From IMG/VR virus record IMGVR_UViG_2698536618_000023: DNA of 17,568 bases. One strand, given 5' to 3'. This DNA comes from a virus (taxonomy: Duplodnaviria > Heunggongvirae > Uroviricota > Caudoviricetes). This document shows, one piece after another, positions 1 to 6,000 of the stretch (positions within the stretch are counted from its first letter, which is position 1; every line of letters starts with the position of its first letter). Made by a program: the position numbers.

Positions 1-3000
1 TCATAGATTCACTGTTCGGGCGTACCAGACACTGCTGCGAGAAATCATGGATAACCCTTGAAATTTCGTCAGATTACCGTTAAGTACGGCCTTGTAGATG
101 CGCTCAGGCTTCCTGCCGTCAACACGTTTACCAATCTTTTTAAGGGTCTGCATAGCTTCTCTATAGTCGTCCTTATGACGTTCCAATAGCTCAGCTTCAG
201 CGTGATAGCCAAGTTCGACCATCTTATTAGCAACGACCGTGGCAACTTCAGGCATCTCAAGGATAGCCTCAAAGGCTGCATAGACCATGTCCTCGAAATC
301 TTCAGAGACCCATCCTGCATACTTGAGGGTAGCCTGTTTGTCTGCGTAGGTTATGCTTTCAATACCAATCTTCTCGACGTGCATTTTTTGCATGTCGGTG
401 AGCCTCTTTGTTACCTTGCCGCGCCACTGAGAGGGTAGCTTATTGTTAGGTAATCCGAGGATTTTCCATATTTCTGTAAGATTCCACATGCCAGACTCAT
501 TAGACTTAAAGCTGTGGCCTTCAATAGTGATAATATGACCTGCATGTTTATGTTTATTGTTCATTGCTTGGTTACCTTTTAAATATGCACACTAAACCGC
601 CCCCTACTGGCCCACTCAAAGTCCCCAAGCGAAGGGAGACCAGCAGGACAACAGGATGCAAACAGAATGACTTTGAGATTGAATGAATGATTGTGTCGTA
701 GCTGTGCGGAGCTACTGTATGGTGAAGCGCGAGAGGTGGAACTTTGAGAGACACGTGGTGAGTGGTTCGGAGTGTGTCTCCTATTAGTAAGTCGTATTGA
801 TTTACTACTGGGAGGGTCTCTGAGCCACGCTAGGCATCAGGCCATACGAAACTACATGGCACCTAAAGAATGGCGTACAGGACCATACAGGGCCATACAG
901 TTAGCTTCTGGGTAATGCCTTGAGGAGACCTATAGGTTTGGTGATTGATTATTATGAATATCATCACCTCTTAAGGTATTCCCTTAGAGTCAATCTTTAA
1001 TTGTGTCTTTAAGTAGACTATAAGTTAATACTTAAAGTTACTCTTTAATTGGTCTTTAATTAATCTATAATTTAATACTTTAAGTTAATCTTTAATTAGT
1101 CTTTAATTAATCTATAATTTAATACTTTAAGTTAATCTTTAATTGTGTCTTTAAGTAGATTATAAGTTAATACTTAAAGTTAAGCCCCTGTAGGGGTTAG
1201 AGACCATAATTAATATGATGTCTAAGGCTATTCACGTATCGACTGACCCAGAGCACACAGGAAGCATTCATTTTAAGTAGAACGCTTGGTGTCTGTAATT
1301 GGTCATCCCGCCCCTGAAAGGATGCGATAAGTTACGGTTAGAGTTAAAGCTACCTGAAGTAGTAGCAAGTGTCATCATAGAGAGAGACAGAGAGAGACAG
1401 AGAGAGAAAACTTTTTGTGTCCCTTCTCCCTATAGTGAGTCGTATTAAATATGCTTGACAAGTAGTGAAAACCATGAGTCAAAACATGACCACACAAAGG
1501 GTCACACAGGACCACATAGGACCACAAAGGGGACCATAGGAATAGTAGCAAGTGTCATCGCCTATGGTCATCGCCTATGGTCATCGCCTATGGTCATCGC
1601 CTATGGTCATCCTTAAGGGGCCACAACCTCCTTATAAACATCAGCCATCACATTGACCAGTCTATCAACCTCAACCTCTTTAGCATAACGGTCGTAAGTA
1701 ATAGACCCTGAACTATGCCCCATGATCGCCTGTGCATACGCCAACTCGACCCCATGTTGTTTTAACTGGGTCGCAACTGTATGTCTAAACGAGTGAAACG
1801 CTAAGCCGCTACGGTCTGCGAGGACTTTAGGCAACAACGTCCGATTAAACCATTTACTCACCTGCTCACCGTAACCGTTCTTCATGAGGCGAAGACCATC
1901 GAACACCATAGCGTCATCACCATCAGCGCCTCTACGGGTCTCAACCAACCTCATAAAGTCAGCCAATATAAAACCATAGGCCCCATCGACCAGAGGCACA
2001 CAGCGGTCACTATGAGCGTTCTTGATGCTCTTACCGGGTAGACTACTATCGTCTTCATTGATATGAATATAAACGGTTCCCGCCTCAGTGGTCCTGACGT
2101 CTTTGACCTGTAGTTGGGCTATTTCATTGAGTCTCGCCCCAGTGATAGCAGCCAAGGCGGTAACATAATAATGATACGGCTTACCAGAAGGTCTCTGTGA
2201 GTAAACTTGGGCGGCAGCCAGTAGTTGTCCTACCTGCTCCGTAGAGAAAGCATTACGCGCCTCAGAGGCTTTACGCTGGGGAACCTTAAGCTCTAGCCCT
2301 TCTGTCATATTCTTTTTAATCAGGTCATTACGCACGGCCCACTTGAAAACAGCCGCCATCTTAATGAGATATTTATTATTGATGGTAACAATATCCAGAC
2401 AATCGGTTTTATCCTCACGACCTAGCAGGTCAACCAACGGAACATCTTTGAAACGCTGCTTACGATTCTTCGGCAATTGCTGGAGGATATCCCGAACCCT
2501 AAGCATATCCGCACGAGCTAACACATTGGCGTCAGCATTGAGGCCCAGATAATCAAAAACTTCGATTAACGCAGCATGAGAAGCTTTGTTTTCTCGTAAT
2601 GTTGCTGGCTTCCAGTTCTGGGCGTTTTCCTGCTCGTACTGCTCAAAGAGAGAAGCAACGGTTACGCAGTGTTTGCCTTCAGTAATGCTTGTTTTTTGGG
2701 GAGCACTAACAGATAGAGTTGCAGAGGCTTGGCCATTAGCCCCAGCAGCAGCATCAAATCCATCTATATAATCTATAAGTGGCTGGCTATCTCCCGCTTC
2801 AATGCGCTTCATGCAGGCCTTGAGTACATTAAGAGCCTCATTAATATAGCGATGCTGGTCAATAGTCAGTGGCTCGCTTGCCAGAGCATGGACAAGATTC
2901 TCTCCCACTTCCCCATACTGGTCACGGTATAGATCTCTCATATCTGGCTCGAAGAGGTCTGAACGACCTGTAGACAACTCCCACTCTGCGATGTCCCTCA

Positions 3001-6000
3001 GGTGTTCCCTCATTTCCTCATAGGAGGCGTTGGGTCTGTCTGCATGGATTGCCCTAAGTGCTGCCTTGATTTGCCGTGAGTAAGCCATAGCTGTACGTCT
3101 ATCCTTAGTCCGTAGTGATACTGACGCTATTTTATAACGGCTATGGGAAGGATGTGAAACGGTCAGGCGATCTGTGGACTTCATCCTGAGGCGGATATAA
3201 AAGACGCCATTGCGCTGATAAAGATAGGTTTTTGAGTTGAGCATGTACTGAGATCTTAAGTCTGCTCACTATTTCAACAAATTTAGTTACAGTGTTGGTT
3301 ACAGTGAGTAAAACTAGCGGAAGGCTTAAAGCCGTATCCCTTAGGATTCAGTAGGTTGGAGTACTTTAAGAAGGGGCGAAGGGAACAGAACAACAAGCCA
3401 TGACACCAGTAATAAAGCCATTTCTACATGTTCTAAAATCAATCCTATACACATTTCTATACACATTTAGCAGGCGCTTGATGACTTACTCAGGCAAATA
3501 TTTACCGGATTTTTTCCGGTTATCCTCTATGAAGCTGGTGGGGTGTGGTCATTTTAGCCATACCCTCGATCACCATAATGATGATCCAGATGTGCACCTT
3601 TCCCCCCCAACGGGGTAAAAGCTCCAACTGTAACGATGTTCGTTATGGTTGTCTGGATGGTCTGCGTGGTGATTATCACCATTCAGATCATTCACACGCT
3701 TTATATATATATAGGAAAAATGTGTCGCCTCAGTTGCCTCAAACGCCTTAACGTATTGATTTAATTAATAATCACAAAAAAAATTGAGGCGACATCATGT
3801 CGATTTGAGGCAACAATAGGGGGTATTTGAGGCAACATCACGTTGAATGCGTTCAGCGAAAACCGCCGAGAAGCCTCTCCCGATAGCGCGGAGAGCAGTC
3901 ATGGACACCTTTCCGTGATGCAAATCCCCCATTTTAGGGGATGTTCTCTCGTTTTGATGGATATCCCTCGCTTTAGGGGATTTTCCCTCCATTTGAGGGC
4001 TATATCTCACCGCCTGTACTGTTTTTCCGTGCTTCGTGGCATAATTATCAGGCGATTACGTTTTTCATGATTGATTGGCAAGTCTGACTTCTCCGCCGCA
4101 GTTTCCTCATGAGTGCGGTTTTTTTATGCGCGTTATGCCGTCACTGAATCGCGCTCAACATACCGATCCATCTCCAGCCGAACATCCAGCATCATCAGCA
4201 TTCCTTCAATAACACCTTCAGCTTTTTGCAGCCGCTTTCCGATAGTCCCATCAGAGCATTCATGTTTTTGCGCCAGTGACATAAACGTCATCCCCCGCAC
4301 GTAGTAATCAACCAGCAACTCATGCAGATCGCGATTGTTCCGGTAAAGGCGGGCTATGCACCCGCATATCACCATCGCATCATCGTCACAGCACTGTGGG
4401 CGTGATGTTATCTTTGCCGGAATAATCCCCTTAAATCCTGCGGCAACGGATGACCAGGTCACATTCTCGCGATTATTTGCCGCCCACGCTCCCCATCGTT
4501 CCAGAACCTGCTGAATATCACGCATCAACAATCACCTTGCGAATAATTATTGGCAACGGTAACTCCGTACAGTAACTCCGTACATCCCCGTAATTCGGGG
4601 TATATACCGGACGGAGGTTAAAATACGAAAATTTCGTAGGTTGTGAGTATATTTCAGATAGTCGGTTGCTCAGCTAATTTTTCTAGAGTAGGTAGTACTA
4701 CGTCGCGTAGTTACTGTTTTTTGATAGTACGCTTTTTCAGCATGCATCCCCCTTGTATACATTTAAAACAAGGGGGCTTTACTTTCTGATAATAGAATTC
4801 TTCCCACAGTTTCCTGTCAGGATTCAATTATTTGTTTTTAACAGCGTGAACAAATAAAAAATCTCCGAAGATTTATCCCAATTACGCTGCCAGCCAGAGC
4901 CATAAACATCCACAACCATCCATGTAAACTTCCTGATGCAGTTCCATCGAAGAATCCTCCCAAATTACAGGAAGCATACGCTCCTCCTGTTCCCATAAGC
5001 AATCCACCAGTTATTCCTGCCATTATGCTTCCACGAGTCAGAGGCTCTTTGATCCTTTTTCCCGTTAGTACAGTAGCCATTGCAGCCCCCAGCAATCCAC
5101 CTACGAACATCCCAACCATAGGATTCTGAAATAATGGTTTAGTAATAACAGAATTATCAGATAAAACCCCAAGAAATGATGCAGTATGCAAGGATGTATC
5201 GTAGATGGCTCCGGTAATTGTCCATGCTGAACCGTGCATTGCCAGAACCAGTGAGTTCAGTACAGCTATAATTAACCCGCCAGAAAGAACAGTAAATCTG
5301 TTATCTTTCCAGAAAGAACCACCACTGGTGATAATTTTAGATATTTTCCCGGTGCGTTTTTTCTCAATGTATGAAAAAACAAGGTATAGTATCAATATAA
5401 ATACAAGACTTAATAACATGCCTGACCACAAGCCGCCAGTAATATCTTTGGTGGTAATAATTTCTCCGGGAAAAATTGGTTTTAGCACTGGCTTATAGTG
5501 ATTGCCAATTAATGTCCCTATACCATAGCAGCACAAAACAAACCAAAATGCCGGACGGCCCTCACCACAACAATAGAGTGTTCCTGACGCACATGCTCCG
5601 GCAATTTGCATTCCAATACCAAAAACAAACGCACCCACCAGAAAAGGGATACTTATTGCTGTAATATTCCCAACCATCTTCCCGCCAAAAAAAGCATGGC
5701 TGAATGACAGGCAGAGTGTAAACAAAACCACCTCAAGAGCGATGGTAATTAAGTGAATCCTTACATAGTATGAGTTGCTCATGGTCAGCATGTCTCTCCA
5801 ACCTGCAACTATCCCAAATCGACTAAAAGACAATGTAAAACCCAAGAAAAAACCAATAATTGCAAGTACGCCCCACTTCATACCAAAACTATTAGCAAGC
5901 CAGTAACTAAATGACAGCATGACAATAAAAATAAATAATATAGTTATGTTTTTCTGAAGCCTTATTTTATACATTTTTAATATACCTATATGTTTCCACG

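Follow-up and report, generated by a model that had tools for sequence, protein, structure and literature searches.

The DNA stretch analysed here (IMG/VR record IMGVR_UViG_2698536618_000023; 17,568 nucleotides (nt), hereafter the window) contains two tyrosine integrase genes, of which the larger is the subject of this analysis. This gene is an intact open reading frame on the minus strand (1613-3244) with an ATG start and a single stop codon, and it encodes a protein of 543 amino acids (aa). The main result is that this integrase type marks a widespread family of mini-islands at the tRNA-Gly(CCC) gene glyU that carry promoters of T7-group phages. The window itself is a tandem array, in which glyU, located just past position 17568, is followed by a P4-like satellite prophage, a residual attachment (att) core, the mini-element with the 543-aa integrase and then the ETT2 secretion-system region. 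No tRNA is detected inside the window by ARAGORN, and the glyU tRNA lies beyond 17568.

A comparison with complete genomes reveals the borders of the mini-element. Positions 1-3372 of the window are 100% identical to E. coli E110019, accession NZ_CP035751, in which the integrase gene lies 135 nt from glyU, at the edge of the ETT2 region. The element at glyU in this strain, where the 543-aa integrase type occurs alone, is bounded by 23-nt direct repeats that are 4,264 bp apart, and the repeat is a copy of the 3' end of the glyU tRNA (plus strand TGGAGCGGGCGAAGGGAATCGAA). The E110019 mini-element contains the integrase gene (int), a non-coding region of ~1 kb, a gene for a 187-aa protein and a gene for a 157-aa protein. 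In strain OkiPb01711, the P4-like element occurs alone at the glyU tRNA, with no mini-element, and more than 3,500 complete E. coli genomes have an empty site, in which the outer flank directly abuts the glyU 3' end. An integrative element in a tRNA gene is recognised by two signs, both of which are found here: direct repeats of the tRNA 3' terminus on either side of the element, and related genomes in which the site is unoccupied. A preliminary reading of the window from its sequence alone (the sequence-only reading) had proposed two independently integrating elements or a tandem array and had suggested a search for att sites against empty sites; the separate occurrence of each element in E110019 and OkiPb01711, together with the repeats and empty sites described above, confirms two such elements in tandem at one tRNA gene.

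Within the window, only a single shortened att core is present, at the junction of the two elements, where 12-13 nt of the 23-nt repeat of E110019 are left. When the junction (window 3360-3390) is compared with positions 23360-23401 of the E110019 locus (L001) and 5990-6020 of locus L002, it lacks 11-12 nt that would be expected after a simple insertion into the tRNA copy: a G stands in place of AGGTCATGGAGC, so that both elements have lost the TGGAGC part of their att repeat. The shortened junction could be a small deletion or an off-register crossover. The P4-like satellite would have used the same glyU tRNA later, and its insertion would have left the shortened att core between the elements.

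A pair of short motifs lies between the att core and the start of int, and a matching pair is found near the far att repeat, outside the window. In nine of nine elements with att repeats, which represent eight genera, TGTAAC(C) pairs are present at both ends, in direct orientation, with a 12-nt spacing and ~75-100 nt inward of the repeat; the pairs are distinct from the core. Paired motifs of this kind are what would be expected if a lambda-type integrase had arm-type sites, and they are regarded here as candidate sites on the basis of their sequence and position.

The identity of the integrase is clear from its C-terminus. The Pfam model Phage_integrase covers aa 334-522 alone (E 2e-18), and residues R371, K405/K408, H484, R487, H510 and Y520, which form the conserved R...K...HxxR...H/W...Y pattern of the tyrosine recombinase catalytic domain, are present in the protein and invariant across a family alignment of 43 sequences. 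A helical core-binding domain precedes the catalytic domain, as in heterobivalent (lambda Int-type) integrases. For the first ~290 aa, no above-threshold model is found in Pfam or NCBIfam; the first 72 residues give a weak, sub-threshold match to DUF6538 (E 6e-4 on the fragment; 19.8 bits, cut-off 27), and a precomputed DUF6538 (PF20172) match exists in the source database for many close relatives. In an exhaustive search with aa 1-330, 350 cluster representatives are retrieved, of which ~50 cover aa 1-170 and the others match the core-binding part only.

An AlphaFold model built from the 43-sequence alignment (mean pLDDT 70) divides the protein into the domains listed in the table below. The modelled N domain, which is of moderate confidence, consists of strands 7-11, 14-21 and 38-43 followed by helix 49-65. 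The model thus describes the N-terminus as an arm-type domain, a family-specific helical insertion of ~100 aa with a linker, and an ordinary core-binding domain, and the truly extra part would be the four-helix module and disordered linker of aa 75-193. No specific fold can be assigned to the four-helix module, for which the structural matches are generic helical proteins with large root-mean-square deviations. The sequence-only reading was correct that the second integrase is unusually large (543 aa versus 417 aa for the P4-family enzyme) and that its catalytic C-terminus is canonical. Its description of the first ~250 residues as non-canonical holds for aa 75-193, whereas aa 7-65 have an arm-type layout and aa 196-305 a canonical core-binding domain; the hidden Markov model search that it had suggested for this region yields nothing above threshold in Pfam or NCBIfam and the sub-threshold DUF6538 match. 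The mini-element itself and its phage-type promoter (see below) had been missed.

Neither Arm-DNA-bind_3 (DUF4102) nor Phage_int_M, the domains that define P4-family integrases, matches the 543-aa protein, whereas both match the 417-aa neighbour strongly. The 543-aa enzyme is a lambda-type heterobivalent integrase with an added module and is not a member of the P4 family. Compared with lambda Int and the Tn916/Tn1549 Int, it has a four-helix module of ~100 aa and a linker of ~20 aa between the probable arm-type domain and the core-binding domain, which brings it to ~540 aa versus 356 for lambda Int; unlike lambda Int-type systems, the mini-element lacks an Xis-like gene. PF22022 is present in some distant Pseudomonas relatives.

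Integrase relatives of 526-552 aa that are 81-92% identical over the full length are found in E. coli, Klebsiella, Serratia, Yersinia, Citrobacter, Raoultella and Plesiomonas. Because these relatives are all of similar length and align throughout, the length of 543 aa is not an annotation artefact. The ratio of nonsynonymous to synonymous substitution rates (dN/dS) is 0.05-0.24 in every region of the protein, including aa 71-171, with dS saturated; all regions, the extra helical module included, are under purifying selection. The helical module and linker (aa 71-195; window ~2660-3034) exist in two diverged forms, with dN to the window sequence of 0.09-0.19 in one group of loci (L004, L007, L010, L013 and L022) and 0.45-0.53 in another (L005, L012 and L023). 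The divergence in the rest of the protein is much smaller, which suggests from the sequences that the module and linker have been exchanged as a mosaic between integrases.

The non-coding region that follows int contains a promoter sequence of phage T7. Located on the int strand, 166 nt past the int stop codon, this 23-bp sequence matches the T7 class III promoter at every position and is identical to T7 phi6.5, 9, 10, 13, 17 and OR, with 26 nt identical to phi9. It spans the T7-group consensus from -17 to +6, with the CACTATAGG core and the upstream specificity region, and its activity is predicted from this sequence. The predicted +1 is the G at 1430, and transcription would run towards lower coordinates, into the cargo genes. 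In 200 shuffles, none reaches even three or fewer mismatches to the T7 promoter. The same promoter context occurs in 58 of 5,426 complete E. coli genomes (~1%) and is unannotated every time.

Features of the window and of the adjoining part of the E110019 locus (L001); integrase domains are given in residues of the 543-aa protein
Feature	Position	Strand	Description
187-aa cargo gene	1-564	minus	KilA-N/Ant-like putative DNA-binding regulator; first gene 3' of the promoters
Second T7-like promoter-like site	777-799	minus	CAATACGACTTACTAATAGGAGA; 5 mismatches to the T7 consensus
Iteron set B	867-910	minus	10-nt repeat family of set A; upstream of the second promoter-like site
AT-rich array	983-1183		47-nt units x4.2
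Conserved non-coding block	1225-1341	minus	~115 nt; includes TAACCGTAACTTATCGCATCCTTTCAGGGGCGGGATGACCA
(GTCTCTCTCT)x3 tract	1379-1407	minus	23-51 nt downstream of the predicted transcription start
T7 class III promoter	1425-1447	minus	TAATACGACTCACTATAGGGAGA; 23/23 match
Iteron set A	1493-1539	minus	~four 10-nt repeats, TGTGGTCC-like; 50-90 nt upstream of the T7 promoter
13-nt tandem repeat	1554-1611		GTCATCGCCTATG x4.5, perfect; begins at the int stop codon
Probable arm-type N domain	aa 7-65		three strands + helix (AlphaFold model)
Four-helix module	aa 75-171		family-specific, four long helices (AlphaFold model)
Disordered linker	aa 172-193		AlphaFold model
Core-binding domain	aa 196-305		helical, canonical lambda-type (AlphaFold model)
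Catalytic domain	aa 335-538		AlphaFold model
Candidate arm-type site pair	3284-3307	minus	CACTGTAACCAA (3296-3307) and CACTGTAACTAA (3284-3295), 12 nt apart; between att core and int start
Residual att core	3373-3385		GGGGCGAAGGGAA, reverse complement of part of the glyU 3' end; mini-element/P4-like junction
P4-like satellite prophage in glyU	3386-17568	minus	separate element
P4-type primase	9786-11609		P4-like satellite
AntA/Ash/Icd fusion	12766-14289		P4-like satellite
P4-family integrase	16315-17568	minus	417 aa; Arm-DNA-bind_3 + Phage_int_M + Phage_integrase; PRK09692
Far att repeat	L001 19115-19137		just outside the window
157-aa cargo gene	L001 19404-19877		just outside the window

The promoter is embedded in a series of repeats and conserved blocks. 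The perfect 13-nt tandem repeat at the int stop codon occupies the position that the defence gene RAZR/PD-T7-4 (see below) has in sister elements; a 17-mer, TAGTAGCAAGTGTCATC, flanks this array, and a second copy of it lies at 1360-1376. Downstream of the promoter, the conserved non-coding block is 88-98% identical in Rouxiella, Morganella, Edaphovirga and an Enterobacteriaceae isolate and 77% identical in Klebsiella, with a 41-nt core that is invariant except for two changes in Klebsiella, and it is better conserved than the synonymous sites of int. The block has no Rfam family; a structured RNA was considered and discarded given the absence of an Rfam match, a folding z-score of -0.75 and almost no covariation, the last a consequence of how little the block varies. 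It could be a DNA site, such as an origin or a binding site. The GC content of window 1001-1500 is 0.33. In T7 origins, a promoter is followed by an AT-rich region, and by this analogy the AT-rich array is a candidate unwinding or origin region. The second promoter-like site resembles the class II promoters phi4.3/phi1.6/phi1.1A, with one mismatch and a 1-nt insertion. It was also considered as a real promoter of another phage, for which no multi-copy match is found in viral contigs, and it is probably decayed or of unassigned specificity.

The arrangement in the window recurs across Enterobacterales. A scan of one genome per species yields 19 enterobacterial loci with the window-type integrase (64-85% identity), and tRNA-Gly(CCC) is detected beside int in 14 of them. 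Att repeats of 17-31 nt are found in eight of the 19 (eight species), which gives element sizes of 5.45-6.45 kb. The att-bounded relatives at tRNA-Gly(CCC) are from Klebsiella, Pectobacterium, Citrobacter, Morganella, Buttiauxella, Enterobacter and Proteus, and glyU elements of the same plan occur in at least eight enterobacterial genera. Their genes are all in one direction, in the order int, often RAZR/PD-T7-4, a promoter/repeat region of 0.7-1 kb, a Rha/KilA-N-type gene, a gene for ~68 aa, a DUF6971 gene and, at the end, a gene for a protein of 330-400 aa.

The promoters are clearly clustered at one position in these loci. When strict CACTATAGG-type cores are counted on both strands of the 19 loci (~730 kb of strand-sequence), 33 of 35 lie within 3 kb after int and on the int strand (p = 6e-36). 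The elements of K. pneumoniae ATCC 13883 and E. coli SCEC020007 contain a perfect T7 promoter, a perfect and a near-perfect K11-type promoter and a promoter of a fourth type, and Citrobacter, Proteus and others have further types with differing upstream specificity regions. Three of the non-T7 variants (the K11-type and two others) are multi-copy and on the same strand in viral contigs of 38.5-41.7 kb, which indicates that the checked variants are real promoters of distinct T7-like phages. At the orthologous promoter position, the T7 specificity region is found in the window and in a gut-metagenome sister and that of K11 in Klebsiella and E. coli SCEC020007, with the core invariant. Additionally, eight loci from Pseudomonas and Bowmanella (L032, L033, L035, L054, L058, L061, L064 and L081), which have distant integrase relatives and no T7-like structural genes within 10 kb, contain AAAAACCCTCACTATAAGGG-like promoter sequences of the 3MF5/gh-1 type 0.8-4.5 kb downstream of int on the int strand. 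In Pseudomonas-type relatives without phage genes, 14 matches to promoters of this type follow int versus ~0.3 expected, and the promoter-bearing phenomenon may extend beyond Enterobacterales.

The integrase is also related to those of temperate T7-like phages. It aligns over its full length, helical module included, with the integrase of Pseudomonas phage vB_PsyP_3MF5 (Autographiviridae, Studiervirinae), at an identity of 31% (tblastn) or 36% (family alignment), and distant relatives occupy terminal positions in viral contigs of ~40 kb that encode T7-type terminase, gp16 or RNA polymerase (RNAP); these matches indicate that the integrase lineage derives from temperate T7-like phages. In contrast to the integrases of those phages, those of the enterobacterial subfamily (64-92% identity to the window protein) never lie beside phage structural or replication genes, reside in elements of 4.3-6.5 kb, are co-directional with phage-type promoters and are 30-60 aa longer. 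No T7 hallmark gene is found by tblastn in the 19 enterobacterial loci with T7 RNAP, TerL and gp10 and 3MF5 TerL and gp16 as queries, a search in which the window was not included. For the window, no signs of a T7-like prophage are found by blastn against the whole T7 genome, which returns promoters only, or by distant blastn against 50,697 phage records, in which the DNA outside int has no match.

A link to anti-T7 defence is provided by the sister elements. No RAZR/PD-T7-4 gene, which encodes a zinc-finger and DUF4145 (HEPN-like) protein, is present in the window. In sister elements L004, L005, L007 and L086-L088, the gene lies directly after the window-type integrase (padloc E 8e-99), and these sisters include gut-metagenome copies with the window-type 187-aa and 157-aa cargo. 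PD-T7-4 has been reported to be a gene that “often overlaps an integrase gene” (Vassallo et al. 2022, PMC9519451), and this remark refers to the integrase neighbourhood described here. RAZR is a HEPN RNase that is activated by the portal proteins of T7 and T3 (Nature 2026, PMC13017515), and the presence of its gene in the sister elements, taken with these published data, ties the family to the conflict with T7. The words “integrase”, “mobile genetic” and “satellite” are absent from the latter paper (PMC13017515), and both of its uses of “T7 promoter” concern laboratory templates or T7's own transcripts; the promoter-driven module is mentioned in neither paper (PMC9519451, PMC13017515). RAZR lies upstream of the phage promoters and has its own promoter, and the promoter-driven module is additional to it.

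The explanation that is likely to account best for these results is that the mini-element is a mini-island triggered by a phage RNA polymerase, acting as a defence element, a satellite or both, with the 543-aa protein as its heterobivalent integrase. It builds on the identity and domain layout of the integrase, on the att repeats, empty sites and tandem array, and on the identity and family-wide enrichment of the promoters. An integrative element of ~4.3 kb would target the 3' end of tRNA-Gly(CCC) through its lambda-type integrase; on the minus strand its parts would be read as att core, arm-site pair, int, repeats and iterons, T7 promoter, conserved block, AT-rich array, decayed second promoter, the KilA-N/Ant-like gene, the 157-aa gene, arm-site pair and att core. 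The 23-bp consensus promoter suffices for T7 RNA polymerase. Ahead of the cargo, sigma-70 promoters are not enriched, and host terminator signals around it likewise are not. Because the consensus is sufficient and no convincing host promoter is seen, the 187-aa and 157-aa proteins are predicted to be made only after a phage polymerase is present. The cargo would thus stay silent until a T7-like phage infects and makes its polymerase, which would transcribe the module, so that the virus's own transcription machinery would serve as the infection sensor of the element. The likely outcome would be interference with the phage (defence), possibly with amplification or escape of the element itself. 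The promoter-driven module could be a second defence layer, an amplification device with a T7-origin-like promoter and AT-rich region, or both. As for the first cargo protein, it matches KilA-N (E 9.5e-4), phrog_129 (E 8e-10) and PD-T4-2_B (E 1.3e-4).

A more ambitious version, which we put forward tentatively and consider somewhat doubtful, is that the glyU mini-elements are a previously unrecognised class of mobile element that parasitises or polices virulent T7-like phages. In this version, the arrays of promoters for several polymerases would act as a sensor panel, the island would be transcribed on infection, with its replication possibly primed, the phage would be blocked or its capsids used for hitch-hiking or both, and the integrase would have come from temperate T7-like phages.

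Because single elements combine promoters for several non-cross-reacting polymerases and their att and arm sites are intact across genera, the enterobacterial elements do not appear to be prophage remnants. The remnant explanation states that a decayed temperate T7-like prophage left its integrase and a few promoters as functionless fossils after the loss of a ~40-kb genome, and it is improbable. It would account for an integrase family that is common to temperate T7-like phages, for promoters of the T7 group, for the decayed look of the second promoter in the window and for the truncated att core between the elements. However, no single phage holds exact promoters of T7, K11 and other non-cross-reacting polymerases as single elements do, and a compact plan that recurs in eight genera with both att repeats and both arm-site pairs intact, together with strong purifying selection on int, also argues against it. 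T7 hallmark genes and fragments of them are absent from all 19 enterobacterial loci, the DNA outside int is unmatched in the 50,697 phage records, and the promoter core is invariant while its specificity region is swapped. Still less credible is that the gene is the integrase of the flanking ETT2 type III secretion island or of a generic island, with the T7 promoter incidental. In E110019 the gene does lie at the glyU edge of the ETT2 region, but the second 23-nt att repeat separates the 4.3-kb element from ETT2, and OkiPb01711 has ETT2 without the 543-aa-type integrase. Moreover, elements of 5.4-6.4 kb are bounded by att repeats with the same integrase type in genera that were fetched regardless of ETT2, and the promoter enrichment is family-wide.

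A closer competitor, though an unlikely one, is a true satellite of T7-like phages, in which the polymerase of an infecting phage would fire the promoter and prime replication of the T7 type at the promoter and AT-rich region, the element would be excised or amplified, concatemers of ~40 kb would be packaged in helper capsids, and in newly reached cells the integrase would insert the element in glyU; this overlaps the preferred reading and adds replication and transfer to it. The promoter with its iterons and AT-rich array resembles T7 origins, and the integrase is from a lineage used by temperate T7-like phages. The use of one tRNA across many genera and the 88-98% identity of the non-coding blocks, despite saturated synonymous divergence in int, argue for recent horizontal spread. 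Packaging as concatemers is known for small satellites of virulent phages, namely the phage-inducible chromosomal minimalist islands (PICMIs). Against transfer of this kind, the elements have no similarity to T7 terminal repeats or packaging regions and no replication, packaging or capsid-remodelling gene, and the 330-400-aa cargo shows no relation to T7 capsid and scaffold proteins. In IMG/VR, the close relatives come from isolate genomes, in which they were called as proviruses, and not from virome particles, the metagenome contigs are integrated forms, and host DNA is degraded early in T7 infection.

Several observations weigh against the phage-triggered mini-island itself. Next to int, the att core of the window copy is cut to 12-13 nt, so that this copy may no longer excise alone; joint excision with the P4-like element through the intact tRNA copy may occur. 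Neither of the two cargo proteins receives a firm functional assignment, and the window copy lacks RAZR as well as the DUF6971 and 330-400-aa genes carried by most relatives. No recombination directionality factor, replication protein or packaging gene is found in the element, and family searches detect no primase or Rep family in it or in its relatives, which leaves the origin-like region of promoter, iterons and AT-rich DNA. There are no circular forms among the metagenome contigs: three gut-metagenome contigs of 4.2-4.6 kb with close relatives were considered as excised circles, and all three are integrated copies that start within the tRNA and lack overlapping ends. No known phage promoter corresponds to the second promoter-like site, and when the intergenic region is compared with the complete T7 genome by short-word blastn, promoters are the only matches, with no homology to terminal repeats or pac regions. 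Everything beyond the presence of the promoter, namely infection-triggered transcription, an origin-like role of the AT-rich array and the biological outcome, is deduced from sequence. Searches of open-access full texts return no account of promoter-bearing islands, and an earlier description may exist.

The mini-element shares several features with known satellites. Like P4, phage-inducible chromosomal islands (PICIs), PICI-like elements (PLE) and PICMIs, it is an island of small size that carries an integrase and occupies a tRNA or fixed site, with predicted phage-dependent expression and with anti-phage genes in sister elements. Satellite promoters that answer to transcription factors of the helper are known for P2/P4. 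However, the mini-element is much smaller than P4 or PICIs, and it lacks the primase/replicase, AlpA/Xis, packaging and capsid-size genes. Its predicted trigger also differs, in that promoters of the island would be read directly by the single-subunit RNA polymerase of the phage, and sister elements hold promoter arrays for several phage groups. How strictly virulent phages such as T7 are sensed by bacteria and their mobile elements is still an open question, and the known satellites mostly rely on temperate helpers or protein triggers. A phage's own promoter, or a promoter panel in some relatives, placed in front of a few genes on an element that an integrase mobilises would be a simple sensing principle. 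With this family, the well-studied defence gene RAZR/PD-T7-4 also gains the genomic context that it had lacked. That ~1% of complete E. coli genomes contain a perfect, unannotated T7 promoter is relevant to T7-based expression and to phage therapy, and the conserved integrase subfamily, which has an added domain and whose att and arm sites are well defined, could serve as a tool for site-specific integration.

Further cargo of the family was examined in the sister elements. Most sisters (L007 14134-15822 and the equivalents in L010, L012, L014, L020 and L023) end with a DUF6971 protein of ~150 aa and the 330-400-aa protein. The latter has no Pfam, PHROG or PDB sequence match, and its AlphaFold model is unusable (pLDDT 42); the idea of a capsid-forming satellite was dropped after profile comparison of this protein with T7 gp10 and gp9 proved negative. 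A 169-aa cargo protein in an E. coli variant element (L005 3146-3655) has a faint, below-threshold match to the T7 internal virion gp14 family (E 0.015). The variants in Morganella (L013) and Citrobacter braakii (L022) end with a serine recombinase (resolvase-like) gene, and the C. braakii element also encodes a 399-aa DUF4236 protein (phrog_17982) on the opposite strand.

Beyond the mini-element, the ETT2 region of E110019, which lies outside the window (L001 1-19000), shows heavy decay and contains many genes with frameshifts, and a GH15 glycoside hydrolase gene lies between ETT2 and the mini-element in this strain (L001). The neighbouring P4-like satellite also encodes Rha, and unusual cargo is present near its distal end, namely an antiterminator Q (4133-4531) and a YeeE/YedE-type sulphur transporter (4838-6076). 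In P4-like relatives from bovine E. coli, genes for PerC-type regulators, ProQ/FinO and SSB replace this type of cargo or lie beside it.

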